Shown here piece by piece: positions 19,259 to 47,143 of a stretch of DNA of 64,000 bases. This stretch comes from Candidatus Omnitrophota bacterium (GTDB lineage Bacteria > Omnitrophota > Gorgyraeia > Gygaellales > UBA12090), in assembly GCA_030674475.1 (NCBI GenBank), contig JAUSCZ010000012.1, forward strand, positions 319 through 64,318, given 5' to 3'. Both the position numbers and the translations under genes were made by a program. Under the pieces are notes generated by a model that was not told where the DNA came from, ran no database searches, and saw only the letters and a program-made list of their open reading frames with translations. Within the stretch, counting starts at the first letter, position 1; each line of letters starts with the position of its first letter.

Positions 19259-19332
19259 CCGCTTTTTCTGGAATTTGTAAAAGAGATACCTGCATAATAA
19301 TGTGCAGGTATCTCTTTTAGTGGAGATAAAAT

Positions 19333-20052: not shown

Positions 20053-20054
20053 AA

Positions 20055-21983: not shown

Positions 21984-22118
21984 AGATTTATTATAACACA
22001 AATTTGTTTTGGCGCATTTGATTAATACAATATCGCTTACAGGAGGCCCAAAAAGTGGTATAATATTTTGTTTTCTTATGTTGATTACCAAATTTATTAA
22101 CTGAAGGAGGTTTTCAGA

Positions 22119-24299: not shown

Positions 24300-24331
24300 C
24301 GTTCCATGACAGTAGTTATTATTAACTACTT

Positions 24332-24369
24332 CCTTCTCCCCTCGTGGGAGAAGGTTAGGATGAGGGGGA
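24332..24369. repeat. REP-like palindromic repeat variant (CTCCCCTCGTGGGAGAAGG...)
   Basis: Intergenic, after the 22119..24299 gene. Related to the CCTCCCCTT..AAGGGGAGG family. Confidence 0.45.
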
Positions 24370-24387
24370 ATTGATTGACAATAATTA

Positions 24388-25761
24388 ATGTCACAGAGTA
24401 ATGATATGTTAAAACAGTTTATTCCTTCTGAGTTTTGCCTGAGGTGTTTTGGCTGTTGTAGATTTAACCAGAACCCCAGCATTTGGGCTCCGGCAGGATT
24501 TAAATTAGTTAAAGATAACGACGGCTATGCCTGTGAAAAGCTCGATGTCAAAAATAACACCTGCCGGATTTATGAAAAACGTCCCTTAGACTGCCGGTTG
24601 TATCCTTTTTTATTAGTCAAAAACGACAGCCACCTTCAATTAGGCCTGCATAAAAGCTGTTGTTTTATTGAAGAGAAACAGCCTGCCCCGGCCGATATTC
24701 AAACTTACGCCCAATATCTCAAGAATAGACTCAATACCGCTTCATGTATTTCCGCAATCCGTAAAAATCCGGAAGTCTCTGCCGATTATCAGGAAAATGT
24801 AGAATTAATCACAGATTTAAAAGATGTATTTGCCAAAGCCTATCTTCCTAAACTCAATATACTTACCCTCAAAGATAAACCCCGGATAGAGGGTTACCTT
24901 TTAAAATCTAAAACTAGCCTTTCGGCGCGCCATTTTGTGGATATCTTTATTTGGAAAGACCTGTTTCAGATTTTTTGGGTAATCATCGAAGATGAGCTTG
25001 GTATCTTTTATCAGGATAAAATCGGGATGTTTATGATGTTACCGCCATTAGGAAAGTTTAAGCCAACGGTGGTTAAAAAGTGTTTTGAGATTATGAATGT
25101 TTATAACCAGAATAGCGCGGTGAGCCGGATTGAGAATGTAGCTCAGGAAGATATTGCTAAATATTCACGCTTAGGATTAAGCTCCAAGCTTAAAGATATC
25201 GAATACCTTTGCCTAAGAAAGGATTTGATTGAATTAGCCGGCAAAGGCTTTAAGTCTAAGCGCTCAAGTTGTAATTATTTTGTTAAAAATTATCGCGCCG
25301 ATTTTTTAGAATATAAAGACAGCTATTACCGGGATTGCCTTAAGCTTTATCAGTCCTGGAGCCGTCAACGTAAAGGTAGACACCAGGATATTATCTATCA
25401 GCAGATGCTGGAGGACAGTTTCTTAAGTTTCCAAACCGCTTTGCGGTATTATAAAAAGTTAGGCTTAAGCGGTTATGTGGTTCGACTACGCTCACCACAG
25501 GTGGTGAAGATTGCTGAAAGAATAAAATCCTGCACGTTCGGCTATCCTTTAAACAAAGAGACCTTTTGCGTTTTGTTTGAAATCTGCGATTTAAATTTTA
25601 AAGGAATAGCCCAATATGTCTTCCGGGAGTTTTGCAAAAAATTATCCGGGTATAAGTATATAAATATTATGGGCGCCTCAGATTTAGAGAACCTAAAAAC
25701 AGTAAAACTTTCCTACCGGCCGAAGAGAGAAATCGGAGTTTACAATATCTATCAAAAATAA
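24388..25761 (+). CDS. YkgJ-type (CxxCxxCC) Fe/Zn-binding domain fused to a DUF2156/MprF-C-terminal-like (FemAB/GNAT fold) domain
   Basis: N-term 'CLRCFGCCRF...CRIYEKRPLDCRLYPF'. The C-terminal domain assignment is by sequence recollection only. Confidence 0.4.
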   Translation: MSQSNDMLKQFIPSEFCLRCFGCCRFNQNPSIWAPAGFKLVKDNDGYACEKLDVKNNTCRIYEKRPLDCRLYPFLLVKNDSHLQLGLHKSCCFIEEKQPAPADIQTYAQYLKNRLNTASCISAIRKNPEVSADYQENVELITDLKDVFAKAYLPKLNILTLKDKPRIEGYLLKSKTSLSARHFVDIFIWKDLFQIFWVIIEDELGIFYQDKIGMFMMLPPLGKFKPTVVKKCFEIMNVYNQNSAVSRIENVAQEDIAKYSRLGLSSKLKDIEYLCLRKDLIELAGKGFKSKRSSCNYFVKNYRADFLEYKDSYYRDCLKLYQSWSRQRKGRHQDIIYQQMLEDSFLSFQTALRYYKKLGLSGYVVRLRSPQVVKIAERIKSCTFGYPLNKETFCVLFEICDLNFKGIAQYVFREFCKKLSGYKYINIMGASDLENLKTVKLSYRPKREIGVYNIYQK

Positions 25762-25776
25762 ATTATGGTTATATTA

Positions 25777-25818
25777 GAAATCCTCCCCTTACCAAGGGGA
25801 GGCGGGGTGGGGTTAAAA
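25777..25818. repeat. REP-like palindromic repeat
   Basis: 'AATCCTCCCCTTACCAAGGGGAGGCGGGGTGGGGTTAAA', immediately upstream of pabB. Confidence 0.6.
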
Positions 25819-27302
25819 TGCCATACTTGACCTGGAAATCGTTTGACTGGAAGCAGGACGCCTGGGGAATTTTTGAGGCAATTAAGGATAAGCAAAATGT
25901 CTTTTTTTTGGACAGTTCTCTGCGCCGTCCGGACTTAGGCCGGTATTCCTTTTTAGGCTTTGAGCCGTTTTGTATCTTTAAAGCCAAAGGCCAAAAAGAT
26001 TCGCTTAATCAGTTAAGAACTCTGCTTGGGCGCTACAGGTTAACAAATACGAAATTTCCTTTTTTAGGCGGGGCAGTCGGCTATCTGGCGTATGATTTCG
26101 GCTTAAGCTTAGAGAACATTGAGGAAAAAACCAAGGATGATATTGGCCTTCCGGATGTATTCTTTGGCTTTTACGATGTGGTAATCGCCATTGACCATTG
26201 GCAGAAAAAGCTGACTATTTTTTCCACCGGTTTTCCCGAAAAAAGCTCTTTCTTAGCCAAAAAACGCTCAGAGCAGAGATTAAAACAGTTTATTCAGGAG
26301 TTGTCTAAGCAGGGCCGTCATTCAGGTTGTGTCACGATGTCATTGCGAGCCCCGTTAGAAAACTTTAGCAATGTTAAAAGAGTTTTTCTAACGGGGCGAG
26401 GAGCCGCAGGCGACGCGGCAATCTCAAAAACGAGTTTGCTTCACCCCTTCGGGGTTCGCAATGACAAATTAGCAATTAAGCCTGTATCTAATTTCACCAA
26501 AGAGAAATATTTAAAAGCAGTTACCAAAGCCAAGGATTACATTAAAAAAGGCGACATCTATCAGGTTAATCTCTCCCAAAGATTCAGCGCGCAAACCTCT
26601 TTAAGCAGTTTTGACTTATATCAGAAACTACGCCAGGTTTCACCCAGCGACTTCTCGGCTTACCTTGCCTGCGGAGATTTTCAGATTATCAGCTCTTCTC
26701 CGGAGAGATTCCTTAGTTTTGACGGGAAAAAGGTTTCCACCCGGCCGATGAAGGGGACCCGGCCGCGAGGAACAAATCCCCGGGCGGACGCGCGCCATAA
26801 GCGGGATTTACTGCAAAGCCCCAAAGATAAGGCCGAATTGCTGATGATTGTGGATTTACTGCGTAATGACCTGGGCCGGGTCTGTAAATATGGCTCAATC
26901 AAAGTCAGCTCAATGCGCGCCCTGGAGGCCTATTCCACGGTTTATCAGACCACCGCCTCTATTGAAGGAGTTTTGCATCCGGAAAAAGACCGCCTTGACC
27001 TGCTCAAAGCCTGCTTTCCCGGCGGCTCAATAACCGGATGCCCCAAAATCCGCTCAATGGAGATAATTGAAGAACTTGAGCCGACTAAGCGGGCAATTTA
27101 TACCGGTTCGCTGGGCTATTTTGGATTCAATAATACCATGGACCTGAATATCTTAATCCGCACAATTTTGAAAAAAAGTGATAAAATATACTTTCAGACC
27201 GGCGGCGGAATCGTATCCGATTCCCAAGCCGAAAACGAATACCAGGAAACCCTCACCAAAGCCCAGGGTATCTTTAAGACGTTAAAGCGCGGTTGCCTGT
27301 AG
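25818..27302 (+). CDS. pabB: Aminodeoxychorismate synthase component I (chorismate-binding enzyme family)
   Basis: 'SSSPERFL', 'PKIRSMEIIEELE', 'RAIYTGSLGY', 'GGGIVSDSQAENEYQET' motifs. A PabC-like gene lies 11 kb downstream. Confidence 0.75.
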   Translation: MPYLTWKSFDWKQDAWGIFEAIKDKQNVFFLDSSLRRPDLGRYSFLGFEPFCIFKAKGQKDSLNQLRTLLGRYRLTNTKFPFLGGAVGYLAYDFGLSLENIEEKTKDDIGLPDVFFGFYDVVIAIDHWQKKLTIFSTGFPEKSSFLAKKRSEQRLKQFIQELSKQGRHSGCVTMSLRAPLENFSNVKRVFLTGRGAAGDAAISKTSLLHPFGVRNDKLAIKPVSNFTKEKYLKAVTKAKDYIKKGDIYQVNLSQRFSAQTSLSSFDLYQKLRQVSPSDFSAYLACGDFQIISSSPERFLSFDGKKVSTRPMKGTRPRGTNPRADARHKRDLLQSPKDKAELLMIVDLLRNDLGRVCKYGSIKVSSMRALEAYSTVYQTTASIEGVLHPEKDRLDLLKACFPGGSITGCPKIRSMEIIEELEPTKRAIYTGSLGYFGFNNTMDLNILIRTILKKSDKIYFQTGGGIVSDSQAENEYQETLTKAQGIFKTLKRGCL

Positions 27303-27385
27303 ATAGATAAATGTGCAGGGGGAGAATGAGGGGGTTTTCCTGATTGTAATCGGTCAGAATGGAGACAAAATATTTTCCCTCTATT

Positions 27386-27457
27386 CCTCTCCCCTTGTGG
27401 GAGAGGTAAGAAATCCTCCCCTTACCAAGGGGAGGCGGGGAGGGGTTAGGTGAGGGG
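27386..27457. repeat. Tandem pair of REP-like palindromic repeats at the island boundary
   Basis: CCTCTCCCCTTGTGGGAGAGG followed by CCTCCCCTTACCAAGGGGAGGCGGGGAGGGG. Confidence 0.55.
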
Positions 27458-27515
27458 TACAAACTGTGAGTTTTCCCCTGAGAACTTACCGATTACTTAT
27501 AACAGAAAAAATGGC

Positions 27516-27554
27516 TTGACAATATGTCGCAAAAAGCATATACTTTTTGCGACA
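27516..27554 (+). promoter_or_regulatory. abiE promoter (TTGACA-17-TATACT) with an overlapping perfect 30-bp palindrome (putative AbiEi operator)
   Basis: TGTCGCAAAAAGCATATACTTTTTGCGACA spans the -10. AbiEi proteins are known to autoregulate via inverted repeats. Confidence 0.55.
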
Positions 27555-27571
27555 AGCGATAGGTTATAGAA

Positions 27572-28171
27572 ATGACACAAAGTATTTATAATAAAGTAGT
27601 TAGCATGATATACGGAATGAAGAGGGGTTGGGTATTTACTACAACTAATTTTCTTGATCTTGGAAGTCGCACGGCCGTGGCTAAAACCCTAGAGCGTTTA
27701 GCGGACTCCGGTACTATTCGCCGACTCGCGCGTGGCCTGTATGATTACCCGGAGAAACATCCTGTGTTGGGAGAGTTACCCGCGAATTATGAGCGCATCG
27801 CTCAAGCATTGGCAGGAAGGGATAGTTTGAAAATTCAACCTTCCGGGGCATATGCCGCTAATCTGCTTGGTTTAACCGAACAGGTGCCGGCAAGAATTGT
27901 TTTTTTGACAGATGGCTCCAATAGAAAAGTGCAGGTCAAAAATCAGCAGATCATTTTGAAAAGAACAACCCCCAAGAATATGGCAACCGCCGGGAATGTG
28001 AGCGGTTTGGTCATTCAGGCTTTGCGGTATTTAGGTAAAGATCACGTAGATGCTAAAACAGTAGGAATACTTAATAAGAGATTAACGGGAGATGATAAGC
28101 GCCAGCTTATGCGCGATCTTCGCTATGCCCCCGCGTGGATAGGATCAATATTTAGACAACTACAGAGATAA
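27572..28171 (+). CDS. abiEi: AbiEi-family type IV toxin-antitoxin antitoxin / transcriptional regulator
   Basis: 'TAVAKTLERLADSGTIRRLARGLYDY' matches the AbiEi N-terminal wHTH. Paired with a downstream AbiEii gene. Confidence 0.7.
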   Translation: MTQSIYNKVVSMIYGMKRGWVFTTTNFLDLGSRTAVAKTLERLADSGTIRRLARGLYDYPEKHPVLGELPANYERIAQALAGRDSLKIQPSGAYAANLLGLTEQVPARIVFLTDGSNRKVQVKNQQIILKRTTPKNMATAGNVSGLVIQALRYLGKDHVDAKTVGILNKRLTGDDKRQLMRDLRYAPAWIGSIFRQLQR

Positions 28172-28178
28172 GAAGATT

Positions 28179-29204
28179 ATGGATAAATTCGTATTGTTGA
28201 CGCGTAAAGATAAACGCGCGTACTTTGAAGTGGCCGCGGCTAACTTGAACATAATGCCGCAACTGATTGAAAAGGATTTTTGGGTATGCTGGATACTAAA
28301 AATTATTTTTTCATTACCGAAGGTCGGCGCGCATTTAACCTTTAAAGGGGGAACATCCCTCTCAAAATGTTATAACGTTATTAAACGCTTTTCGGAAGAT
28401 ATCGATATTTCAATAGAAAGGCCTTTTTTATCAAAGACCCATGCTATCGAACCGGATAAAGAAAAAAGCAATAAGGAAAATCAGAAAAGACTCAAGGAAT
28501 TGCAATTGGTTTGTAAAACAAAAATTGATGAAATGATCATCCCCAGCTTAAAACAATCAATCGCGGCAGTTCTTTCCGATACCGGGGAATGGAAAATTGA
28601 ACCGGATTCCGGGGATGAGGACGGACAAACTGTTTTATTTATCTTTCCTCATGCTATGACGAGTACCGCGGAAAGTTACGTAAGATCCTCAGTCAAAATT
28701 GAATTTGGCGCTCGATCTGATCATTGGCCGGTTGAAACCGCGACAATTGTCCCCTATGTCGCGAATGTTTCCGGGGAGCGGGTTATTGAAGGGGCTTCCG
28801 CGCGCGTTTTAGCCGCGGAACGGACTTTTTGGGAGAAAGCGACGATCCTGCATATGATATATCATTATCCGTCTGAAAAAAACATACCGCCGCGAATGTC
28901 GCGGCATTATTACGATATATACGCGATGGCAGATTCGCCCATATATAAAAAAGCATTAAAGAGTATTTCGTTGTTAAAACATGTATCTGACCATAAATCT
29001 CTATTTTTTAAAGCGAATTGGGCGCATTATGATACAGCCAAGTCGGGTACCTTGCGGTTAGTGCCTCGTGATAATCTGGTGAGCCAACTGAAAAATGATT
29101 ACCGTCAAATGCAGCAAATGTTTTTTGAAGAGCCTCCGTCATTTGAGCAAATTATAGAAAAACTCCGGGCCATAGAAGAACAGATTAATAGGATCTCCTT
29201 ATGA
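28179..29204 (+). CDS. abiEii: AbiEii/AbiGii-family nucleotidyltransferase toxin (DUF1814)
   Basis: 'FKGGTSLSKCY...SEDIDIS' NTase motif typical of AbiEii. Confidence 0.75.
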   Translation: MDKFVLLTRKDKRAYFEVAAANLNIMPQLIEKDFWVCWILKIIFSLPKVGAHLTFKGGTSLSKCYNVIKRFSEDIDISIERPFLSKTHAIEPDKEKSNKENQKRLKELQLVCKTKIDEMIIPSLKQSIAAVLSDTGEWKIEPDSGDEDGQTVLFIFPHAMTSTAESYVRSSVKIEFGARSDHWPVETATIVPYVANVSGERVIEGASARVLAAERTFWEKATILHMIYHYPSEKNIPPRMSRHYYDIYAMADSPIYKKALKSISLLKHVSDHKSLFFKANWAHYDTAKSGTLRLVPRDNLVSQLKNDYRQMQQMFFEEPPSFEQIIEKLRAIEEQINRISL

Positions 29205-29349
29205 ATTACTACTGCACCTCAGATTATCACTTTTCGCGTTGCGTAAAAAAGAAGGCCCTGGCCTTATCCAATCCCGAACTGCATCGCCTTGCGCGAAAAC
29301 TATTAGAAGTTTAAAGGGAAAAAAGGAAAAATGGGGTCAGGGAATAATA

Positions 29350-29453
29350 GGGTCAGCGACCATTTTATTGAAAGATGGAGGAAATTTTGGGAAGCGTTAA
29401 CTATAATGAAAAAGGACAGACCACGAAAATGACAATAAATGGTCGCTGTCCTT
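29350..29453. repeat. Small TIR element (GGGTCAGCGACCAT ... ATGGTCGCTGTCC), GGGGTCAG-family relative
   Basis: A 12-nt inverted repeat with one mismatch flanks ~76 nt. It is preceded by a partial GGGGTCAG at 29333. Confidence 0.4.
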
Positions 29454-29530
29454 ATTTTCCGATTGTTCGCCTGGGCAAGGATTTTTGCAAAAAGACTAAA
29501 CCAAGGTGTGAAATATGCCCGATAAAGTAA
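29452..29530 (+). pseudogene. Fragment homologous to the 3' end of the endonuclease III-like gene at 45146..45787
   Basis: It translates to '..PIVRLGKDFCKKTKPRCEICPIK*', versus 'ALIVRLGKDFCKKTNPKCEICPIK*' at 45723..45787. The helicase start codon (29515) lies inside it. Confidence 0.6.
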
Positions 29531-32500
29531 AGAAACAATCCGAAGTGCAAAACAAAGCAATCAGGCTTTTTACTTATCTCGAAAAAGCCCTTTCTCTCGA
29601 TGACACTATCGTGAGAGATTTTCGGTCTACTATCACTGCACCTTCTCCTTGGTGGCTGGCAGATTTACCTGATGATGTTGAAAATCTTCAAGTTAGGCAG
29701 TTTGAAACTAATCAGACTGGGGATGAGGAGAATGCGACTCAAGATGAGGTTTGGCTTCGTGTGGAGAAAAAGAGTATCAAATCTGCTCCGCCGATGCCGG
29801 ATGCTCTGAACGAATGGATTGATGAAGTGAATCCCATTGAGACCCCAAAAGCAAAGGAAAAAATTGACCGGAAGATAAAGTTTGATCAAGACGAAACTCG
29901 CGCTCGGGAATTCAAAAAATTCAGAAAAGAATTTGCTCAAGGAAACAAGCCGCCGAAACTTCTTGAGGAATGGGTTGTTTTGAGCCCAAATAAATTTCCC
30001 GAGGTTATAGAAGAAAGATATATTGAGGAATACTTTAACGATCACCCCGAACTCCAAAGTCTTCTTAATGACTACATTGAGAACGAATGGAAGCCGTGGG
30101 CGCAAAAAGTGGTAAAAATCTACAAGGCAAATTTGCTTTATGACCAACTCTATGCCTTACGCTTTCTTTTGAAAAACGAGGGGGATAGTTATGAGTTGTT
30201 ATGGGGACACGGTTTACTCACATGGAAGCACGGTGGCATAGGGACAATTTATGCACCGATCTTTTTAACTCCTTTAACGCTGGGTTTTGACGCTTCAAAG
30301 AGAGTAATTGAGATTTATCCCGATCCAATGTTTCGGGGTTTTGCGGAAATTTCATCCCTGTACGAAATGGATAATCCCGCAGAAATGGACTTGATAACAT
30401 GGTCGGACAAAATCAATTCAAATCCATTCAACTTTTGGCATTTTGAAACACTCAAAACGCAGACGCGGTTTATGATAAACACACTCTCAACCTCAAGTGA
30501 AGACTATTTTGACGAAAAACTTGTTTCTGCTCCCAATTCTACCGTAACGCCGAGTATTTGGAACGCGCCAGTGATATTTGCGCGGAAACGGACAAATGAC
30601 CTTTGGTCAAAATACGCGGGTATTATTCGGCGCGATATCGAGCAGAACAACATAGAACCGACAGAGTTTATTGCCGATCTTGTTGGCAACTATCAAGAGA
30701 CGGAGCAAATAGAAAGCGAGAATGGCGGCGAAAAAGAAGGCGAAACGATACTAAAAGAATCAGAATTGTTTTTCCCGTTGCCATGGAATGATGAGCAAAA
30801 AAGAATCGCGGAACGGCTTGATGCGCATTATGGGGTCGTAGTAAAAGGTCCGCCGGGCACCGGAAAAACTCACACTATCGCCAATCTTATTTCTCGCTTT
30901 CTGTCACAAGGAAAGACTGTTTTGGTTACATCACAAACGAGTAAGGCATTGGAAGTTTTAAGAGATAAATTACCAGAAAATATTCGAAGCCTTGCCGTCT
31001 CGCAACTCCATCAAACCGCGAGACAGGACGATGTATTACAACAATCAATTACTGAGATTAGCTCTAACCTGGGAGAGCGGCATACAAAATTCAGCGAGCA
31101 AAAAGCGGAAATTAAAAGAAAGGAACTTCAGGGCGTCAGGGAAGAGAGAGCACCTCTCGCAAATCAAATAAGGAAGTACATTCTTACGGACTCAAGCGTA
31201 AAAATTGAAATAGACGGAGAGGAAATCAATCCTATTGACGCGGCGAAGTTGGTTAGCAGGTACAAAGATGATCCAACGCTTGAATGGTTTACGGATAAAA
31301 TTCACTTTGAGACAAAACTCAATTTCAAAGACGAAGATTTAGAAGAAATCTACATGTTACTTACAGAACTTAATTCCGAAGAGCGGCAACTACATAAATT
31401 TGAGTTACCAATGACCTTCAGTCTACCAAGCGAAGATGCGGCAACGGGAGTTTTTTCCTCATACCGAGATCTAAGTGATAGGGTGAAAACATCAAATAAA
31501 GTTTTTGGCGACTCCAATCCAAACCTCCAGCAGGAGAAACTCACAACCCTATGGGAACAACTATCAAGCGCTAAAAAGGTTTTATTTTCCATAAACAAGG
31601 ATTATGAAAAAGAGATTTTTGGATTGTGTATAGTCAGCCAAAGCGAGCGAGAAAAATGGCGCGTCGTCCTTTCAAAAATTGGCGAGAAAATCTATTTGAT
31701 CGGCAAAAGTAGTACAAGCATTCTCGGCCACGAAATTATCGGTAACCAAAACATCCCGCTCACTGATCTTTTGGAGGCAATATCTGTTCTGAAGGAAAAG
31801 GCGAGAGGTAGAACAAAGATAGGGACTTTTGCGAAGTTGCTTTTGTCGTCTCATGGGAAAAAGGTTTTGGAGAGCTACAAAGTAGACGGCCGCGTTCCCG
31901 AAGATGCAGAACGCTTGGAAATTCTGCACCAAAGCGTTCTTATCAAGCAAGCACAGAAAGAAATTAAAACTTTATTGGGACAAAGTTTTTCTCACCTGAA
32001 GTCGCCTTTTGATTCGCAGGATCAAGAGGTTGATGTGGTACAACTTGAGGTATTGATCTCAAGTCTTGAAAGGATAATCAATTACTACGAAAACTTTGTT
32101 ACCATAGACAAATTTTGCAAAGCAATAAGACAACTTTCCGATTTTGCGTTTACTAAAATCGAGGATATCGAAAAACTTACTGAAATCATTTCGTCCCATG
32201 TAGCGAAATTTGAGATCGTGAATTTAGAAACTTTATTGTCCGGCTGGACTCAATCAATTGAGACATCTATAAACGGCGAAAGACACTCAATCATAGAAAA
32301 ATTACTATCGGCGATAAACAAACGGAATACAACCGCATGGAGAAACGCCCTTGATGAACTCGGGTTGCTTCTTGATAAAAAGCAAAGGGCGATCCGCTTG
32401 AATGAATTATCTCAAAAAGTTAAAGAACTCTCTCCGAATCTCTATCAGGATATTGGTGGACTTGCCGATCAGAAAAAAAAGCTTTTGTGCCCTAAAAATC

Positions 32501-34113
32501 TCGGTCTTGCATGGAAAATAGCGCGACTCGAATCGTGGCTCGATCATATCCATAATCATATTGATATTGATAGTTTGCAAAATCAATTAGAGCGGCTAAC
32601 CAAAAAAGAATATCAACTGAATTCCGATCTCGTAACTATTCTCGCTTGGCAGAGACAGATTGATAAGGTTACGAAAAAACAACGTGATGCGCTGATGGCG
32701 TGGTCGCACGAGATGAAAAAGTATGGAAAGGGTACCGGCAAGTGGGCGATTACGCATCTCCGTGCGGCACAAGAGGCATTGAAAGAGGCGAAAAATGCCG
32801 TGCCTGTTTGGATTATGCCGCTCCATCGTGCCGCTCAAATGTTTTCGGATCCGAAGGCGGGAATGTTCGATATTGTTATTTTTGACGAAGCGAGCCAGTG
32901 CGATATACGAGGAATTACAATAGGATATCTCGGTAAAAAACTTCTCGTTGTCGGCGACCCAGAACAGATTAGCCCCGCCGGTATATTCCAAGATCAAGAG
33001 AAAATATTTGAACTCATTTCTCGATTTCTGTTTGATATTCCTTTCAAAGAAAGTTTCTCAATAACATCGAGCTTGTTTGATCTCGCAAAAATAAGATTAT
33101 CCAATATAATTCAGTTAAACGAACATTTTAGGTGCGTGCCGGAAATCATCGCATTCAGCAATCACCATATATACGAAGGAAAACTTAAACCTCTACGGTA
33201 TCCTCACCCTAAAGGATTATTGAAGCCCGCACTTGTTCCGATTTTTATAGAAACGGGCTATCAAAATACAAACAACAAAGTCAACGTGCCAGAAGCAGAA
33301 GCGATTGTTGAAAAGTTAGTTGAATGCCTAAATGACCCAAATTATCAAAAACGCCCGGATAATGTAGGTAGCCACATATGTACATTCGGGATCGTGTCTC
33401 TGCTTGCCGAAGATCAAGCGAAATATATCAAAGAGTTAATTTTAAGACGTATTGACGAGAGAACAATAGAGGAAAGGCGTATTGTTTGTGGAGATGCGTA
33501 TGCGTTTCAAGGAGATGAAAGGGATGTGATGTTTCTTTCTGTGGTGAAAGCACTCGATTCAAATGATCCGGAAGATGTAGTTAGATCTCTGACGGACGAG
33601 GGTACGAAACGAAGGTTTAACGTTGCCGCGTCTCGTGCCCGCGATCAGATGTTTTTATTTCATTCAATCCCCCTTGAAGAATTTAGAAACCCTAACGATT
33701 GGAGATATAAACTTCTCAACTGGTTTTACAATCCAAGGACCGAGGAATTGAATGCTGGGCGAGATGCCCTAAAGCGAGAGTTTAATTCTGGCAGGGCATC
33801 GCAGTTCTCTTTTGATGTTGGAAATATCCTGATCGATCGTGGCTATCAGGTTTTGCCGGAATATCCAGTCATTGGGTATCGAATTGACCTTGTTGTGCAG
33901 GGTGCAGAGGCTCGTCTTGCTGTGGAGTGCGATGGAGATCAATATCATACACTAGAAAATTGGGAAGAGGATCAAGTGCGAGAGAGACAGCTGAGAAGGG
34001 CTGGATGGGAATTTTGGAGAGTTACCGGAAGTGCGTTTTATCGAAACAAAGAAAAAGCTCTCGAAAGTTTATGGAAGAAACTAAACGAATTAGGCGTTAA
34101 ACCGATTATTTAA
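29515..34113 (+). CDS. 1532-aa SF1 (Upf1/DNA2-like) helicase with a DUF4011-like N-terminal region and a C-terminal Vsr/DUF559-type PD-(D/E)xK nuclease domain
   Basis: Walker A 'GPPGTGKTHTIANL', Walker B 'VIFDEASQ', 'VVGDPEQISP', 'CGDAYAFQGDERDVMFLSVV' and 'RRFNVAASRARDQMFLF' motifs. C-term 'YRIDLVVQGAEARLAVECDGDQYHTLENWEEDQVRERQLRRAGWEFWRV' matches DUF559. Confidence 0.8.
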   Translation: MPDKVKKQSEVQNKAIRLFTYLEKALSLDDTIVRDFRSTITAPSPWWLADLPDDVENLQVRQFETNQTGDEENATQDEVWLRVEKKSIKSAPPMPDALNEWIDEVNPIETPKAKEKIDRKIKFDQDETRAREFKKFRKEFAQGNKPPKLLEEWVVLSPNKFPEVIEERYIEEYFNDHPELQSLLNDYIENEWKPWAQKVVKIYKANLLYDQLYALRFLLKNEGDSYELLWGHGLLTWKHGGIGTIYAPIFLTPLTLGFDASKRVIEIYPDPMFRGFAEISSLYEMDNPAEMDLITWSDKINSNPFNFWHFETLKTQTRFMINTLSTSSEDYFDEKLVSAPNSTVTPSIWNAPVIFARKRTNDLWSKYAGIIRRDIEQNNIEPTEFIADLVGNYQETEQIESENGGEKEGETILKESELFFPLPWNDEQKRIAERLDAHYGVVVKGPPGTGKTHTIANLISRFLSQGKTVLVTSQTSKALEVLRDKLPENIRSLAVSQLHQTARQDDVLQQSITEISSNLGERHTKFSEQKAEIKRKELQGVREERAPLANQIRKYILTDSSVKIEIDGEEINPIDAAKLVSRYKDDPTLEWFTDKIHFETKLNFKDEDLEEIYMLLTELNSEERQLHKFELPMTFSLPSEDAATGVFSSYRDLSDRVKTSNKVFGDSNPNLQQEKLTTLWEQLSSAKKVLFSINKDYEKEIFGLCIVSQSEREKWRVVLSKIGEKIYLIGKSSTSILGHEIIGNQNIPLTDLLEAISVLKEKARGRTKIGTFAKLLLSSHGKKVLESYKVDGRVPEDAERLEILHQSVLIKQAQKEIKTLLGQSFSHLKSPFDSQDQEVDVVQLEVLISSLERIINYYENFVTIDKFCKAIRQLSDFAFTKIEDIEKLTEIISSHVAKFEIVNLETLLSGWTQSIETSINGERHSIIEKLLSAINKRNTTAWRNALDELGLLLDKKQRAIRLNELSQKVKELSPNLYQDIGGLADQKKKLLCPKNLGLAWKIARLESWLDHIHNHIDIDSLQNQLERLTKKEYQLNSDLVTILAWQRQIDKVTKKQRDALMAWSHEMKKYGKGTGKWAITHLRAAQEALKEAKNAVPVWIMPLHRAAQMFSDPKAGMFDIVIFDEASQCDIRGITIGYLGKKLLVVGDPEQISPAGIFQDQEKIFELISRFLFDIPFKESFSITSSLFDLAKIRLSNIIQLNEHFRCVPEIIAFSNHHIYEGKLKPLRYPHPKGLLKPALVPIFIETGYQNTNNKVNVPEAEAIVEKLVECLNDPNYQKRPDNVGSHICTFGIVSLLAEDQAKYIKELILRRIDERTIEERRIVCGDAYAFQGDERDVMFLSVVKALDSNDPEDVVRSLTDEGTKRRFNVAASRARDQMFLFHSIPLEEFRNPNDWRYKLLNWFYNPRTEELNAGRDALKREFNSGRASQFSFDVGNILIDRGYQVLPEYPVIGYRIDLVVQGAEARLAVECDGDQYHTLENWEEDQVRERQLRRAGWEFWRVTGSAFYRNKEKALESLWKKLNELGVKPII

Positions 34114-34155
34114 AAAACCATTAGAGTAAGCCAAAGTTGAAGAATACAGAAAAAT

Positions 34156-34229
34156 GGGGTCAGAGTGAATTTATGATGGCAGAATCGTGAGGGGAATAGA
34201 GAGAATGCTTAAAAAATAGACCTGACCCC
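34156..34229. mobile_element. 74-nt MITE, GGGGTCAG...CTGACCCC family, copy A
   Basis: Terminal inverted repeats GGGGTCAG/CTGACCCC. Identical, including short flanks, to copy C at 35536. Confidence 0.7.
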
Positions 34230-34249
34230 TATATTTGGCTGAAAATAAA

Positions 34250-34322
34250 GGGGTCAGAGCGGATTTAGGATGGTAGAATCGTGAGGGGATGGAGGGAATA
34301 CTTTAAAAGTAGACCTGACCCC
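34250..34322. mobile_element. 73-nt MITE, same family, copy B (diverged)
   Basis: GGGGTCAGAGCGGATTTAGGATGGTAGAATCGTGAGGGG...AGACCTGACCCC. Confidence 0.65.
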
Positions 34323-34431
34323 GACTCCTATGTGCGTTGAAGTAGCGAAAGCAAAATTTGCAATGAAACAGGCATGTAAGAGGTTAGTTTTCGCTATGAG
34401 CTTTATTACGGCTTAAATCTATGATTCTAAT

Positions 34432-35379
34432 ATGAAGAAATATGCAGATTCAATAACACAATATTTACAAAATGAATTAAAGAATTCTGCAGTTAGTTAT
34501 TTAAAGGCAGGGTTGGAGATTTTTCATAAGACAAATAAAGCAGGAAGTTGGAGCAGTCAACCTGCTTTGGGAAATTTGGGGATAGCGGTAGAATTGATGT
34601 TAAAGGCGTTTATCGTAAAAAATAATCCCCTTCTCCTTTTTAAAGGGTTGCCTATAGAACTTCAGGTGTTATTTACTTGCCCTGATTCTTTGCCCCGAGA
34701 TTTTAATTGGAGACTATTTGATATCGATTTACGATCATTTAAGTATGAAACCAAAGAATTAAATGAGTGTATCTCAGCATTTTATGTATTATTACCAGAG
34801 CATAAACAAGAGCTTAATCCGTACATGCAATTATTATCACGGTATAGAAATGCTAGTGTTCATTCTGCTTTGCCTTCATTTCAGGCCTATGAGATTCAAA
34901 GAGTGGCGTTTCTATCGTTGCGTTTGTTATCAATTCTCCAGTCTCGAAAAATAATCTCTGAGTATGCGCACATCACTACAAAAGATGACAAGTATTTCCT
35001 TTCTGCATTTAAACTTGACCGAATCGACCGTGTTAAGAAGAAAATCGATGATGCTAAGGAAAAGTCAAAACGTATTCCAGCGGGGCAAGCTTCATTGAGC
35101 GTAGATGGTTGGGAGAACTATGTGACACAATGTCCAATATGCGAATCTGACGGGATGCTTTCTGGCTATACAGATATACATGTTGAAGGGTCAGCAGAAG
35201 ATGTTGATCTATCGCTAGACTTTCTCGCAGATGGATTCATATGTGAAGAGTGTGGATTAGAGTTAAATGATACTGAAGAACTCAGGTTGGCAGGGATAGA
35301 GTTGTATTATGATCGTTCTAGTGAATTAGATGCATGGCATAGGGATCAGTATGAGCCTGATCCAAGTGAATATCTATAA
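34432..35379 (+). CDS. Hypothetical 315-aa protein with an Rx4H (HEPN-like) motif and a C-terminal zinc ribbon
   Basis: 'LLSRYRNASVHSALP' (R-x4-H) at aa ~139-144; 'CPICESDGM...CEECGLEL' Cys pairs. No other recognisable motif. Confidence 0.4.
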   Translation: MKKYADSITQYLQNELKNSAVSYLKAGLEIFHKTNKAGSWSSQPALGNLGIAVELMLKAFIVKNNPLLLFKGLPIELQVLFTCPDSLPRDFNWRLFDIDLRSFKYETKELNECISAFYVLLPEHKQELNPYMQLLSRYRNASVHSALPSFQAYEIQRVAFLSLRLLSILQSRKIISEYAHITTKDDKYFLSAFKLDRIDRVKKKIDDAKEKSKRIPAGQASLSVDGWENYVTQCPICESDGMLSGYTDIHVEGSAEDVDLSLDFLADGFICEECGLELNDTEELRLAGIELYYDRSSELDAWHRDQYEPDPSEYL

Positions 35380-35535
35380 CTATTTGCTTTTATGAACGAA
35401 GCCTATCCCCTTAAAATTCCGTCAGTTTTTTTGAAAAAAGAGGGAGAAGGATAGCGGGGTAAATAGGGTTAGCTTAGGTTGTCCCTATTTTTTCAAAGAG
35501 GAGCAATTTGGAAAAATTATTGCAGAGGGAATAAT

Positions 35536-35609
35536 GGGGTCAGAGTGAATTTATGATGGCAGAATCGTGAGGGGAATAGAGAGAATGCTTAAAAAATAGA
35601 CCTGACCCC
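35536..35609. mobile_element. 74-nt MITE, same family, copy C
   Basis: Identical to copy A. Confidence 0.7.
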
Positions 35610-35639
35610 TATATTTCCTATATTTACGCGGAACATCTG

Positions 35640-36412
35640 GAAGTATGGTATGGGCAGAAAAAAACAGAGACTATCAGCCGGCTAAGAGGAGAATACAAAC
35701 ACAGGATAAATTACCGGCATATCATAGATTGGCTGGTAAGGAAGCCCGGCGCATTCCAACAATACCGGTATCGGCAGGATATGTTCCCCACGACAATATT
35801 CCGCCTGGCATATGACAATTTAATAGCGCATAGCCCTGCCAAAGGGCATAAGGATTATCTGGAGATATTATATTTAGCTTCAAAAGAGAGCGAAACAGGG
35901 GTTGGACAGGCATTGGAGAGCCTTTTAGAGAATCAGCAGGCTATAAATATGGACGCGGTCAGGAAAATCTTAGAAGTGGATACAGAAAAAACATCAGTTG
36001 CGGATATACGAATCGACAGTATTAACTTATATGATTACGATGAATTCCTGACGGTTAAGGAGGCAGCCTGATGATAAAGACAGCAATCAATATTAAGTCG
36101 CGCCTCAAGGAAATGTTAAAAGAACTGCATTTATCAGCAATCAGGGAATCGTATGAAGAGCTGGCAAAAGACGCGCAAGCGAATTCGTTATCTCCTGAAG
36201 AATTTTTATTAGGATTGACTGAGCGGGAATGTGAATACCGGCGGTTAAGACGAACAGATCGGTTATTACGGGAATCGCGGCTGCCGCTGGAGAAAACGAT
36301 GGAGTTATTTAATTTAAAACGGCTGCCGGCGATAGTAATCCAGAAGGTAAAAAGCCTGCTTGATGGTGAATTCCTTAACCCCTCCGAAAATGGGGTCAGC
36401 CCCGGACAGTAG
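35640..36412 (+). mobile_element. IS21-family remnant: istA C-terminal fragment and 3'-truncated istB (N-terminal 113 aa only)
   Basis: 'MLKELHLSAIRESYEELAKDAQANSLSPEEFLLGLTERECEYRRLRRTDRLLRESRLPLEKTMELFNLKRLP' matches the IstB N-terminal domain. It stops before the Walker A box, exactly where repeat E1 begins. The upstream ORF 'DMFPTTIFRLAYDNLIAHSPAKGHKDYLEIL...' abuts it as istA does. Confidence 0.65.
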
Positions 36413-36470
36413 ACATTAATTGATAAAAGATTAATTGAATGACTATAATCGCGTTTTGTCCACACAACGC
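36392..36470 (+). repeat. Repeat E1: GGGGTCAG-initiated ~78-nt element end carrying an inward sigma70 promoter (TTGATA-18-TATAAT)
   Basis: ~90% identical to E2 (37480..37548). It truncates istB and sits 170 nt upstream of the DUF3800 gene. Confidence 0.6.
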
Positions 36471-36642
36471 TTAATTCATCGAATTCGATGGGGAGATAAA
36501 AAATGGACATCCTTTGTAACATGTTGAAATCTTTAACAGGATAGATAAATATTGTGACAAAGTTAATCTTGTTAAAAAGATTGGGCTAATCGTTTTTATC
36601 CGCGAAGTAGAGTAAAACGTGGCTGTGCAGAAGGCAGGGTAA

Positions 36643-37295
36643 GGTGTTTTATTTATATCTAGACGAAAGCGGTGATTTGGGGGTTTGATTTTGTTACTAA
36701 GAAACCCTCAAAATTCTTCACTATCATGGTGCTCGTGCTGAAAGGACAGGATAAGAACCGCGCGCTTATTAATGCGGTAAAGCATACATTAAGGCGCAAG
36801 TTAGGGAAAAGGAAGCTGTTCAAGAGCATTGGCTGCGAATTAAAGGCAAGCAGGGTGTCTATTGAAATTAAAAAGTATTTCTACGACCAGGTCAAGGGGT
36901 TGGATTTCAAATTGTATACGTTGACTCTCAACAAGAAAAGGGTGTATCAAAGCTTAATGCAAGAAAAGGAGAGAATTTATAATTACCTCGCCCGCTTAGT
37001 GTTGGATAAGATAAGTTTTGATAATGCTGAAGTCAGGGTTACGCTGATAGTGGACAAAAGCAAGGGTAAGCCTGAAATTTCCGAATTCAATTCATATATC
37101 TTTAGGCAGATTCAGGCAAAAATTGATCCCAAGATACCATTAGATATTGAGCATGCGTTATCGCATGAGAACTTGGGTTTGCAAGCAGTGGATATGTTTA
37201 CTTGGGGGATATTCAGAAAATATGAGAGGAAAGACTTTGGGTGGTTCAGGGTATTTGAGAGCAAGATGGCTTACGATGATGTTTATCTACCATAA
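36643..37295 (+). pseudogene. DUF3800-family gene with a +/-1 frameshift in a G5 tract
   Basis: GTG-initiated 'VFYLYLDESGDLGV*' (the N-terminal DUF3800 DESGD motif) stops at 36686. The rest continues in another frame as 'GFDFVTKKPSKFFTIMVLVLKG...GLQAVDMFTWGIFR'. A single-base change in GGGGG would fuse them. Confidence 0.6.
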
Positions 37296-37626
37296 AATAA
37301 AAATGAGCGCGCCTTACAGGTTCGTTAAGTTTAGGCTTTTGCCCACCATACGGAGGGGAACACCTAAACAACCCGTAACGGTCTTACCGCTCACTTATAA
37401 GTATACCCTATGAGAAGGTTTTGTCAAGATGAAAATTTGGATAAATAGTCGTTTCTGTGCAAAACGACGGGAAAACGACGGGGTCAGACCCGGACAGTAG
37501 ACATTAATTGGTAAAAGATTAATCGAATGACTATAATCGCGTTATGTCCAACTATGGGATAGTAGAAACATATTGACAATGTAACTACATTGTAGTATTA
37601 TTGTAATAGAATAAGAAAATGAACCA

Positions 37627-37902
37627 TTGATGCATATTCATAGTTTTGACTGGGATGAGAAAAATGAAAACCATATAGCCGAACATGGAGTCGCGATCTT
37701 TGAGGTTGAGGAGGCAGTTCTATTTAGTAGGCCTTTCTATCAGAGAAGCAGGGAGGGTAAATATATTGCTTATTCTCTCACCGAGGAAGAGAGGTATCTC
37801 TTTATAGTTTTTGTGATCAAAGATAGTGGCCGGATAAGGGTGATTAGCGCCAGAGATATGAATGAGAAAGAGAAGCGTTATTATAAAAAGAAGAAGAGGT
37901 AA
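37627..37902 (+). CDS. brnT: BrnT-family ribonuclease toxin (DUF497)
   Basis: 'FDWDEKNENHIAEHGVAIFEVEEAV...RVISARDMNEKEKRYY' matches BrnT. Confidence 0.75.
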   Translation: MMHIHSFDWDEKNENHIAEHGVAIFEVEEAVLFSRPFYQRSREGKYIAYSLTEEERYLFIVFVIKDSGRIRVISARDMNEKEKRYYKKKKR

Positions 37903-37909
37903 AATAAAC

Positions 37910-38239
37910 ATGAAGAAACTGCCCAAATTCAAAACGGAAAAAGAAGAGGCCAGTTTTTGGGATACGCACAGCCCATTGGATTATCCAGGTGAGTTCAGTG
38001 AGGTAAAGAATCCGTTTGAATTCGCTCCCGGTCTTTTAAAAAAAGCCGCCCGAAGCCGCGAAGAAAGAAAACGCCAGCTTACCTTAAGGATGGGGCAGCG
38101 TCAAATTGATCTCGCCAAGGTTATTGCTAAATATAAAGGATTGGGCTATCAAACTCTAATGAGAATATGGGTTATTGAAGGAATCCGTCAAGAGATTAAG
38201 ACGCATCCAGAGATAGAAAAACTCCTTACCAAAATATAG
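37910..38239 (+). CDS. brnA: BrnA-family antitoxin
   Basis: 'KKLPKFKTEKEEASFWDTHSPLDY' matches the BrnA N-terminus. C-terminal RHH-like region. It overlaps brnT. Confidence 0.7.
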   Translation: MKKLPKFKTEKEEASFWDTHSPLDYPGEFSEVKNPFEFAPGLLKKAARSREERKRQLTLRMGQRQIDLAKVIAKYKGLGYQTLMRIWVIEGIRQEIKTHPEIEKLLTKI

Positions 38240-38337
38240 CTAAATAAAAAGCTGGAGAGAATGGGTTAAGCTCAAGCAATAGAAATTAACTTCTAAAGTT
38301 GAGGTCTGACCCCAGAAAGTGCAGCGGTACCATTTAG

Positions 38338-39150
38338 ATGAAAATTTGGCTTAATGGGAAATTTGTAAAAGAGGAAGAAGCGAAGGTTGACATTACCTCA
38401 AGCGGTTTTTTATACGGCCAGGGGGTTTTTGAGACGATGCGGGCTTATAATGAGCGGGTTTTTCGTTTGGACAGCCATCTGGAGCGCCTGTTTAAGGCCC
38501 TGCCTATTCTTAACCTGGAATTATCCGTAGGACCTGAGGTTTTGAAAAAGGCGCTTAAGCAGGCTTTAAAAGAAAATAATCTTAAAGACGCCTATTTACG
38601 GATAACGGTCTGGCAGGGGAAAGATAAGGTTGAGGCCGCGGTTTTTGCCCGGGCGTATAATTTTTTAACCAAAGAGGATTACCATAAAGGCTTTAAGGCG
38701 ATAGTTTCCAGTTTTCGCCAGAATGAATTTTCCATCTTTTCCGGAATTAAGTCCGCTAACTATTTGCCTTTACTCCTGGCTTATCAGGAGGCAAAAAAGA
38801 AAAATGCCGATGAGGCCATACTTTTAAATACCCGGGATTTTCTGGTTGAGGCCTCCCGGGCTAATCTCTTTTTAGTTAAAGATAATTGTTTATTGACCCC
38901 ATCGTTAGACTGCGGATGCCTTCCCGGAATTACCCGGGATACGGTTTTAGGCCTGGCGGCTAAGGAAAAGATAAAGGTAATTGAGACTAAGCTTAAACCG
39001 GAGGATGTCCAGAGAGCCGAGGAGGCCTTTTTGACTAATTCCTTGATTGAGGTGATGCCGCTGGTCGCGGTTGAAGGAAGGCCGATTAAAAAAGGAGTTC
39101 CCGGTAAGATTGCCGAGCGTATTTTAAAACGTTACAAGGGATTGACTTAA
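38338..39150 (+). CDS. pabC: Class IV aminotransferase-fold protein, probable aminodeoxychorismate lyase
   Basis: Fold-type IV PLP enzyme ('GQGVFETMRAY', 'EAFLTNSLIEVMPLV'). It is the only nearby partner for pabB. Confidence 0.6.
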   Translation: MKIWLNGKFVKEEEAKVDITSSGFLYGQGVFETMRAYNERVFRLDSHLERLFKALPILNLELSVGPEVLKKALKQALKENNLKDAYLRITVWQGKDKVEAAVFARAYNFLTKEDYHKGFKAIVSSFRQNEFSIFSGIKSANYLPLLLAYQEAKKKNADEAILLNTRDFLVEASRANLFLVKDNCLLTPSLDCGCLPGITRDTVLGLAAKEKIKVIETKLKPEDVQRAEEAFLTNSLIEVMPLVAVEGRPIKKGVPGKIAERILKRYKGLT

Positions 39151-39160
39151 GAAGTTATAA

Positions 39161-39370
39161 ATGATAAAACATATATTTAGAATAAGTTTTGGGGTGGTTT
39201 TGATACTCTTAGGCGTTGTTGGGATATTCCTGCCGATTATGCCCGGGCTGTTATTGATTCTTCTGGGTAGCGCGGTGATAGTAGAGAAAAACCCTAAGGT
39301 TTTATTCGGTGAAATCGCCGAAAAAGTAAAAAGAAAGATGAGGACTAAACAAAATGAAAAAGCCGGTTAA
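39161..39370 (+). CDS. DUF454/YbaN-like small inner-membrane protein
   Basis: 'LGVVGIFLPIMPGLLLILLGS' with two TM helices. Confidence 0.5.
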   Translation: MIKHIFRISFGVVLILLGVVGIFLPIMPGLLLILLGSAVIVEKNPKVLFGEIAEKVKRKMRTKQNEKAG

Positions 39371-41702: not shown

Positions 41703-42100
41703 TGCCCAGAAAAAAAGAAGACAAGGAAAAAAAGGATTTGGATTTTGAGATTGATTTTTTTGAGCAACTGCTTAAGAAGAAGCCGGATTTTATCCTGGCC
41801 TTAACCGCCTTGGGAAATGCCTATACCCAGCGGGGAGATTATAAGAAAGGCTTGGAAATTGACCTGCATTTGAGCCGCTTGCGTCAGGATGATTCCACGG
41901 TGCATTATAATCTGGCCTGTAGTTATTCCCTCCTGGGCGAGCTGGATTTGGCCTTTTCTACCCTAAAAAAGGCCTTTGACTTAGGTTATGAGGATTTTGA
42001 ACATCTTAAGTATGACCCGGACTTAGAGAACTTAAGAAAAGATGAGCGTTTTCAACTTATCTTAAAAAATAGGCCAGCCCCTTATGCGGACAAGCCCTGA
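41702..42100 (+). CDS. TPR-repeat protein
   Basis: 'ALTALGNAYTQRGDYKKGLE...YNLACSYSLLGELDLAF'. Confidence 0.5.
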   Translation: MPRKKEDKEKKDLDFEIDFFEQLLKKKPDFILALTALGNAYTQRGDYKKGLEIDLHLSRLRQDDSTVHYNLACSYSLLGELDLAFSTLKKAFDLGYEDFEHLKYDPDLENLRKDERFQLILKNRPAPYADKP

Positions 42101-47054: not shown

Positions 47055-47117
47055 ATTTAGGATGACAGAATTATAAGGGGAATAGAGAGAATGCTTAAAA
47101 AATAGACCTGACCCTGT
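47042..47117. mobile_element. MITE, GGGGTCAG-family, copy D (5' end degenerate), overlapping the ATPase stop codon
   Basis: 'GAGGTCAGAATGAATTTAGGATGACAGAATTATAAGGGGAATAGAGAGAATGCTTAAAAAATAGACCTGACCC', followed by a duplicated CTGACCCTGTAAAC. Confidence 0.6.
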
Positions 47118-47143
47118 AAACTGACCCTGTAAACCCCGTTTCT

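Follow-up and report, generated by a model that had tools for sequence, protein, structure and literature searches.

A stand-alone Upf1-like helicase with a C-terminal Vsr-like nuclease: a candidate defence enzyme in a variable island of an Omnitrophota genome

What is the task of a gene that codes for a giant helicase, lies directly downstream of an abortive-infection gene pair and is labelled in GenBank merely as 'AAA domain-containing protein' (MDO8747800.1)? The question is raised by a stretch of 64,000 nucleotides from a Candidatus Omnitrophota bacterium (contig JAUSCZ010000012.1, positions 319 to 64,318; hereafter the window). The gene occupies positions 29515–34113 of the plus strand and starts with ATG. 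A first-pass annotation, made by reading the nucleotides without database searches, had described here an open reading frame (ORF) of 1532 amino acids (aa), which ORF call and translation bear out, and had proposed a candidate single-protein anti-phage nuclease–helicase. This proposal is supported by the intact nuclease residues, by the gene contexts of homologues and by matches to defence libraries, from which we infer the role. We consider it moderately probable that the gene encodes a self-contained defence enzyme directed against phages or other mobile DNA, belonging to the architectural group of Hhe, ProA and PDC-S37.

Helicase core, helical insert and nuclease domain

All helicase and nuclease motifs that had been read from the translation are present in the protein. 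The helicase part contains Walker A or motif I (GPPGTGKT, aa 445–452 with K451; 30847–30870), Walker B or motif II (DEAS, aa 1124–1127 with D1124 and E1125; 32884–32895), the sequence VVGDPEQ (aa 1145–1151), motif V (QGDERD, aa 1332–1337) and motif VI (RRFNVAASRA, aa 1366–1375), the last two within the RecA2 domain (Pfam AAA_12; 33067–33657). The nuclease part contains ECDGDQYH (aa 1471–1478) and GWEFWRV (aa 1497–1503). Pfam, which had been expected to return AAA_11, AAA_12, DUF559 and DUF4011, found the first three and additionally MTES_1575, and the expectation failed for DUF4011. AAA_11 (8e-18) and AAA_12 (7e-15) describe a helicase core whose motifs I, II, III, V and VI are of the AAA_11/AAA_12 type, whose closest solved relatives are among Upf1, Sen1 and Dna2, and which was typed as a superfamily 1 (SF1) core of the Upf1/Sen1/IGHMBP2 kind. 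By its motif set and its nearest solved relatives the protein is classified as a Upf1-like (SF1B) helicase.

The C-terminal region (33805–34083) matches Pfam MTES_1575 with 97.7 bits (4e-28, cut-off 38.2 bits) and DUF559 with 24.5 bits, just over the cut-off of 20.6 bits, in agreement with the DUF559/Vsr-type PD-(D/E)xK endonuclease that had been predicted at this position. The solved folds nearest to the domain are the DNA endonucleases I-Bth0305I and Vsr; a sequence search of the PDB with the nuclease domain alone gave nothing significant. Loss of the catalytic residues on alignment had been named as an observation that would speak against the proposal. However, the putative catalytic set D1458, E1471, D1473, D1475 and H1478 (33886–33948) is invariant among the close family and retained by most distant relatives. 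The C-terminal domain scores over the gathering threshold, has the fold of Vsr and keeps a conserved set of acidic and histidine residues; by these marks it is a Vsr-like PD-(D/E)xK nuclease.

Walker A is nearly invariant (29 of 30 divergent relatives) and is separated from Walker B by about 670 residues, which include an all-α-helical insertion of about 570 aa in RecA1 between motifs I/Ia and II (aa ∼530–1100; 31102–32814). In the AlphaFold2 (AF2) model this segment has predicted local distance difference test (pLDDT) values mostly of 80–90, and DSSP assigns it almost entirely to helix, with several helices of 30–36 residues. It is at the same time the least conserved part of the protein, with a family identity of 0.41–0.62 compared to 0.9 in the motifs.

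The region in front of Walker A falls into two parts. When aa 1–430 were searched against 1.84 billion representative proteins, 827 relatives were found at E≤1e-3, in which the matched region is nearly always N-terminal in proteins of 1400–1900 aa. Most of these relatives cover just aa ∼170–430, with starts near aa 145–190, and aa 1–170 belong to a narrow clade. From this coverage we distinguish a clade-specific module (aa 1–170; 29515–30024), which has no Pfam match and a fold without a solved neighbour, and a domain common to many helicase–nucleases of 1400–1900 aa (aa 171–430; 30025–30804), which consists of a long helix followed by a long β-hairpin (ELLWGHGLLTWK...IYAPIFLTPLTLGFD). The first-pass annotation had called the N-terminus DUF4011-like, a claim that is possible but weakly supported: Pfam DUF4011 (PF13195) is absent from aa 1–430 even at E≤10, and in 30 diverse full-length members Pfam finds AAA_11 and AAA_12 in all, MTES_1575 in 29, DUF3320 in two and DUF4011 in none. 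A profile–profile comparison by hhalign of the N-terminal domain with three DUF4011/Hhe N-termini gives P=9e-4 and a probability of 23%, against P=0.37 for the reversed control, and the signal is centred on a common G-x-G-[LF]-L-x-W ... A-P-[IL]-F ... P motif. Such a weak similarity hints that aa 171–430 are possibly a very divergent DUF4011 domain.

Relation to named helicase–nuclease defences

Single proteins that combine an SF1 helicase with a Vsr-type nuclease are already known, namely Hhe, ProA, the candidate PDC-S37 and the proteins described by comparative genomics in 2013 and 2023. Defence-specific models do match the window protein in PADLOC. The best match is PDC-S37 (model PDLC05009; 2.8e-63, 212 bits), in which aa 376–1525 align with positions 248–1340 of the 1550-position profile; this covers ∼70% of the profile and 75% of the protein, and both profile ends, the N-terminal ∼250 and the C-terminal ∼210 positions, are unmatched. 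It is followed by Hhe (1.3e-32, second half only), MkoC (2.9e-31) and MkoA (2.2e-30). In NCBIfam the best match is 'anti-phage protein ProA' (NF058533) with 4.4e-70 and 236.6 bits at a cut-off of 1500, and 'DUF4011 domain-containing anti-phage protein Hhe' (NF042953) aligns with aa 1024–1527 at 4.4e-38 and 130.5 bits, its cut-off being 2000. Thus the earlier statement that the protein could not be tied to a named defence system needs revision, as named relatives exist. Judged by these alignments, the helicase–nuclease has the architecture of Hhe, ProA and PDC-S37, yet is a member of neither curated family (Hhe, ProA).

Gao and colleagues are said to have validated Hhe in 2020, in Science, as a single-gene anti-phage helicase–nuclease. 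For comparison we used a protein that carries this name from PGAP, WP_032441900 (1911 aa) of the Klebsiella pneumoniae plasmid pM941-a. It is laid out as DUF4011 at 30–308 (1.6e-37 by Pfam), Walker A at 447, an insert of ∼900 aa, motif II at ∼1380, AAA_12 and MTES_1575 at 1683–1780. Both proteins thus present the same order of an N-terminal region of ∼430 aa, Walker A near 445, a very long insert, Walker B, RecA2 and MTES_1575; both join an SF1 helicase split by a long insert to a C-terminal MTES_1575 nuclease in one polypeptide, and both are encoded by a single gene without a fixed partner. Aligned by profile over its whole length, the window protein is collinear with three DUF4011/Hhe-type proteins (probability 100%, E=5.5e-60; aa 6–1530 with Hhe 22–1787). 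Nevertheless, the two proteins differ: BLASTP aligns only aa 1097–1526 (28% identity) and the surroundings of Walker A (40%), the inserts have no homology detectable by hhalign (P=0.034), and Hhe is 380 aa longer with a C-terminal tail.

The ProA profile aligns over a larger part of the protein (aa 376–1526 with positions 600–1706 of 1903), spanning helicase, insert and nuclease. Its first ∼600 and last ∼200 positions are unmatched, so that the N-terminal region of the window protein differs and a C-terminal tail is missing. None of 30 diverse relatives of the N-terminal domain reaches the ProA cut-off (best 8.7e-97), and a literature search found no primary paper on ProA. PDC-S37 is matched by all 30 divergent relatives (best 1e-123), and its C-terminal part, to position 1533, aligns in a Sphingobium relative that bears DUF3320. 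PDC-S37 is a single-gene phage-defence candidate of PADLOC-DB v2 that is not known to be validated.

The closest architecture by direct alignment is this relative, a 1937-aa 'DUF3320 domain-containing protein' encoded on plasmid pMSHV (WP_081570538). It is collinear with the window protein from aa 180 to the C-terminus at 29% identity, including the common N-terminal domain, the helicase, the insert and the nuclease, and its gene adjoins a restriction–modification system and AbiEi/AbiEii; unlike the window protein it has a DUF3320 tail of ∼350 aa, that is, a winged helix–turn–helix (wHTH). The MTES_1575 Vsr-type nuclease was defined in giant SF1 helicase proteins, in the same study that read DUF3320 as a wHTH (Anantharaman et al. 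2013, PMC3710099). The window protein has neither the HEPN nor the transglutaminase domain found in the MTES_1575 prototype, and the aa 1–170 module sets it apart from these giants. Its distinct features are its own N-terminal module, the lack of a DUF3320/wHTH tail, and scores that place it outside the curated families Hhe and ProA.

Three further systems bear comparison. In the CoCoNuT systems the SF1 helicase CnuH is UPF1-like and has Walker A followed by a large helical insert; in Type III-B a Vsr-like PD-(D/E)xK nuclease is fused directly to CnuH, without a wHTH, RNA targeting being predicted (PMC10542128). The window protein resembles Type III-B CnuH in the helical insert and the direct fusion, a likeness taken from the published description. 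CoCoNuTs are however defined by McrB/McrC partners (CnuB/CnuC), to which Type III-B adds the coiled-coil protein CnuA (PMC10542128), and among the island ORFs scanned there is no McrB-type GTPase, McrC-type gene or CnuA. The matches to the Mokosh models MkoA and MkoC (∼1e-30) lie in the second half of the helicase, but Mokosh uses a phospholipase D (PLD) nuclease, either fused in MkoC or separate as MkoB, and neither the window protein nor its neighbours contain a PLD domain. Like MkoC and Nhi, the window protein joins helicase and nuclease in one polypeptide. The nuclease of Nhi is located N-terminal to the helicase, while in the window protein it is C-terminal, and the PADLOC model of Nhi has no match at E≤0.01.

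Distribution of the family, proposed mechanism and rival explanations

A word-indexed homologue search gave 3350 matches at E≤1e-5. The best 120 of them, which were examined, are near full-length, 64–94% identical and of the same Pfam architecture. The named sources of close relatives are metagenome-assembled genomes (MAGs) of Levybacteria, Woesebacteria, Saccharibacteria, Omnitrophota and Planctomycetales and a Bacteriovoracaceae bin. Of eleven close relatives, no two have the same neighbourhood. The most similar one (P0001, 94% identity) is accompanied by DarT and a Macro-domain protein, a DarTG-like pair, and by a PLD–SNF2 protein with an Eco57I-type methyltransferase; others have AbiEii, an SNase, a RecB-like nuclease and a small resolvase (P0103), two serine recombinases, a ParB–methyltransferase and a MazG-like protein (P0075), a serine recombinase with DUF2779 or DUF2130 (P0060, P0092, P0084), an MNT-type nucleotidyltransferase and DUF1016 (P0008), a ParB–methyltransferase and an RNase_H_2–SF1 helicase (P0013), or mainly housekeeping genes (P0006, P0072). 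A distant relative is located directly after BREX pglZ–brxL on the Acinetobacter baumannii plasmid p3ABAYE. The contexts are variable and defence-rich or mobile, not predominantly housekeeping, as a refutation of the first proposal would have had them.

The gene itself appears as the unit of transfer. Two contigs (L021/L022, 95% nucleotide identity) and a third one (L008, 92%) align with the window across the ORF alone (29513–34074), and their flanks are unrelated. Against the copy in L021 (9684–14279, located in another island and 95% identical), the ratio of nonsynonymous to synonymous divergence (dN/dS) is 0.16 overall and 0–0.22 per segment; the whole protein is under purifying selection. 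The synonymous divergence is 0.36 in aa 1–170, 0.15–0.26 in aa 171–1000, 0.02–0.04 in aa 1001–1400 and 0.28 in the nuclease, and this mosaic suggests recent recombination between alleles within the gene. As far as the compared contigs tell, the gene travels singly between unrelated islands and lineages. A conserved partner gene was sought and dismissed, as the neighbours of seven homologues have no similarity to each other or to the 315-aa gene downstream of the helicase–nuclease gene, and none of the island proteins of the window recurs across 60 other loci. Likewise, the idea of a phage-encoded gene was given up, as 50,697 phage genomes yield no full-length relative and one partial match of 25.6%. 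Full-length distant relatives do occur on ∼15 IMG/VR contigs, possible prophages, and distant relatives in 472 plasmid records, 207 of them conjugative plasmids.

Some associations were seen on contigs of the candidate phyla radiation (CPR) type. A DUF2779 or RNase_H_2/PDDEXK_1 protein is often encoded next after the helicase–nuclease (L027, L028, L019), and a DUF2130 protein in L018 and L029; a small HTH_3 regulator precedes it in L020 and L029, its stop abutting the gene start. These six loci are elements with large serine recombinases and ParB–methyltransferases, and the associations are recurrent, not universal.

How could such a protein act? We suggest that the aa 1–170 module, the aa 171–430 domain and the variable helical insert would form a sensing or auto-inhibitory part. 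The cue given by an infection would most likely be a nucleic-acid intermediate that arises while phage DNA replicates or recombines, and not a specific phage protein; it would allow the motor to load on a single strand. The motor would then move in 5′–3′ direction, the polarity of SF1B helicases of the Upf1/Sen1/Dna2 type, and ATP-driven translocation would deliver the C-terminal, Mg-dependent Vsr-type endonuclease, by which the invading DNA would be nicked or cut. Perhaps host DNA would be cut too, in effect an abortive infection. In the case of Hhe, screens of phage gene knock-outs point to the DNA-metabolism cluster of T7 as trigger, and toxicity was seen with Bas63 g40 in hhe cells (10.1101/2024.10.10.617714); this is in line with an enzyme that senses a process and not a single protein.

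Several points weigh against a defence enzyme of this kind. The scores are far under the curated cut-offs (237 against 1500 bits for ProA, 131 against 2000 bits for Hhe), PDC-S37 is a candidate only, on which no literature was found, and a literature search returned no publication on this clade. Several homologues are flanked mainly by housekeeping genes, and the taxonomic spread consists of MAG bin assignments, some of them from short contigs. The helicase core is poorly modelled by AF2 (pLDDT <50 at aa ∼1125–1238), and for this reason the model does not inform about the domain arrangement. Moreover, we infer what triggers the enzyme, whether its substrate is DNA or RNA, its polarity and what results from its action.

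These points leave room for other explanations. The gene might travel as cargo on integrative or conjugative elements and work for the element and not for the cell, attacking competing plasmids and elements or stabilizing and processing the element's own DNA, with any anti-phage effect incidental. A large serine recombinase is located within 7 kb or less in 5 of about 11 close-family contexts, often with a ParB–methyltransferase and abutting small helix–turn–helix (HTH) regulators, and the plasmid and IMG/VR records of distant relatives point in the same direction. On the other hand, the window has no integrase, its island is located at a chromosomal hotspot, and the position of the gene relative to recombinase or replication genes is not fixed. 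Elements commonly carry defence genes, so that an element context leaves the cargo and the defence readings unseparated; on balance we regard the cargo explanation as unlikely. We rank below it an RNA-directed surveillance, in which the Upf1-like motor would follow RNA that is aberrant or comes from a phage, in the way proposed for the CnuH and Mokosh helicases, and the Vsr-like domain would cut RNA or the DNA of the transcribed locus. This would suit a helicase of the Upf1/Sen1/IGHMBP2 type, the PADLOC matches of ∼1e-30 to MkoA and MkoC, and the parallel with CnuH, which has a helical insert, a Type III-B Vsr-like fusion and predicted RNA targeting (PMC10542128). But the solved folds nearest to the nuclease are DNA endonucleases, Upf1-like helicases also act on single-stranded DNA (PMC10542128), neither Pfam nor the AF2 model reveals an OB-fold or another RNA-binding domain, and the island scans found no McrB/McrC partner.

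A housekeeping function in DNA repair or recombination, as a Dna2- or AddAB-like helicase–nuclease or in Vsr-type mismatch processing, appears very unlikely to us, although some homologues are found among dnaX, recR, recQ or ligase genes. A DUF4011 gene flanking core defence hotspot 1 of Pseudomonas aeruginosa is a core gene present in every isolate (PMC10250203); this example also counts against our preferred reading, as it implies that a gene of the DUF4011 family need not be mobile. Nevertheless, the window gene is missing at the same locus of a close relative, its spread across phyla at 64–94% identity is patchy, its neighbourhoods are never alike, and the island contains no cytosine methyltransferase partner as Vsr-type repair would expect. 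Least credible of all is a selfish gene of the homing type, which would be spread by its own nuclease. Copies with 92–95% nucleotide identity across the ORF only, with different flanks, and the mosaic of synonymous divergence would be in line with homing; however, the gene does not interrupt a host gene, an intron or an intein, known homing endonucleases do not resemble a 1532-aa protein that has a conserved helicase motor, and the fold is common to Vsr and DUF559 proteins.

If the gene does encode a defence enzyme, it would extend the little-characterized immune repertoires of Omnitrophota and CPR bacteria by one gene. We may go further and speculate, though we think it rather doubtful, that the clade is a functionally distinct branch of helicase–Vsr defence enzymes in groundwater and sediment lineages (Omnitrophota, CPR/Patescibacteria, Planctomycetales, Bacteriovoracaceae); identity within the clade is 64% or higher over 1500 residues. 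Its trigger would be unlike that of Hhe and ProA, perhaps RNA, and would be read by the aa 1–170 module and the insert, and the gene would be an ORF-precise recombining cassette marked by GGGGTCAG-ended repeats. Single-protein defences of the Hhe/ProA type have a validated phenotype and a poorly understood mechanism, and we found neither a solved structure nor a defined trigger for them. With its compact size (1532 aa, no wHTH tail), its high conservation and a set of more than 100 near-full-length sequences, the clade could offer a tractable system in which to study the coupling of a Upf1-type motor to a Vsr-type nuclease. For the specialist the candidate is sensible and unsurprising; its value is that of a compact, well-conserved representative from little-studied lineages. 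Should it prove inactive against phages, this would call for caution with 'anti-phage' labels transferred via sub-threshold model matches across a broad superfamily.

The variable island and its repeats

The gene is part of a variable island of 11.0 kb (27287–38332) between a pabB-like gene (25818–27302) and a class-IV aminotransferase gene (38338–39150), as delimited by blastn against a related Omnitrophota contig (L025). This contig is syntenic with window positions 19328–27286 and 38333–45132 at 85–89% nucleotide identity, and at the pabB/aminotransferase site (L025 8223–9921) it has in place of the island 2.0 kb with an AAA_14/DUF4143 ATPase and an IS200-type Y1 transposase. The accessory status of the island, claimed from the outset, therefore holds, and since L025 carries other genes there, the site behaves as a recurrent insertion hotspot.

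The order of the island is AbiEi, AbiEii, helicase–nuclease, a 315-aa gene, IS21 remnants, a DUF3800 gene and BrnT/BrnA. Directly upstream of the helicase–nuclease gene, where AbiE had been expected, Pfam and PADLOC confirm AbiEi (27572–28171, plus strand; DUF6088/AbiEi_4, PADLOC 3.7e-70) and AbiEii (28179–29204, plus strand; Pfam AbiEii, PADLOC 1.3e-104). The two form an abortive-infection toxin–antitoxin pair, a system separate from the helicase–nuclease. At the other end are the BrnT toxin (37627–37902; PF04365, 2.1e-13) and, overlapping with it, a CopG/BrnA-type antitoxin (37862–38239; PF12441, 4.9e-08). This is the one type II toxin–antitoxin pair that could be found in the island, where two had been announced; a second pair was sought without success, and 35781–36412 are IS21 remnants. 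There a 113-aa ORF matches the first 94 positions of IstB (1.2e-11), a decayed insertion sequence, and the preceding 96-aa ORF has no significant match. A full DUF3800 gene lies at 36672–37295.

The 315-aa gene downstream of the helicase–nuclease (34432–35379, plus strand) had been regarded as a possible companion. It does not qualify as a conserved partner and is not seen beside the helicase elsewhere. It has no match in Pfam, NCBIfam or PADLOC and is flanked on both sides by 74-nt repeats. Its family comprises 56 clusters and shows an invariant R139-N140-x3-H144 (RNASVH), which fits the Rx4-6H motif of HEPN RNases, and invariant zinc-ribbon-like CPxC...CxxC cysteines at 234, 237, 271 and 274; in two homologues S1 RNA-binding domains are fused to the protein. 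On these motifs it is a candidate HEPN-type RNase.

The 74-nt repeat GGGGTCAG...CTGACCCC is present downstream of the helicase–nuclease gene as a tandem pair (34156–34229, 34250–34322), with further copies at 35536–35609 and 47044–47114; the search for the element gave 3 matches against 0 expected by chance. The repeats have 8-nt terminal inverted repeats, and related GGGGTCAG ends are found at 29333, 36392, 37480 and 38306. Of the 11 copies of GGGGTCAG in the window, 10 lie within 29333–38313. GGGGTCAG-ended repeats occupy every module junction of the island, and the 74-nt repeats occur solely at junctions between gene modules in the two regions where window and L025 differ. The bracketing of the gene by miniature inverted-repeat transposable elements (MITEs), as first described, is correct insofar as the repeats are real; the palindromic element upstream of the gene (29333–29456, with 20-nt inverted arms at 29346–29365 and 29437–29456) has the GGGGTCAG end in common with the downstream 74-nt repeat, of which it is no copy. 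We suggest that the 74-nt repeats could be MITE-like and could either mark or bring about the exchange of cassettes. A reading as integron attC sites was discarded, since on folding only the 8–10-nt ends pair and no attC-like hairpin is formed. A scan for promoters and terminators was uninformative, its counts not standing out from those of shuffled sequences (20 against 17.4 and 10 against 7.5).

The second of the two regions, a small one at 45867–47694, is missing from the syntenic L025 and contains a 397-aa ORF (45861–47054), a copy of the 74-nt repeat and a truncated DUF3800 gene (47144–47569). In addition, a 72-nt stretch formed by the 5′ leader and the start of the helicase gene (29461–29532) is 85% identical to L025 17901–17972, which lies at the end of the HhH-GPD gene and adjoins the second variable site.

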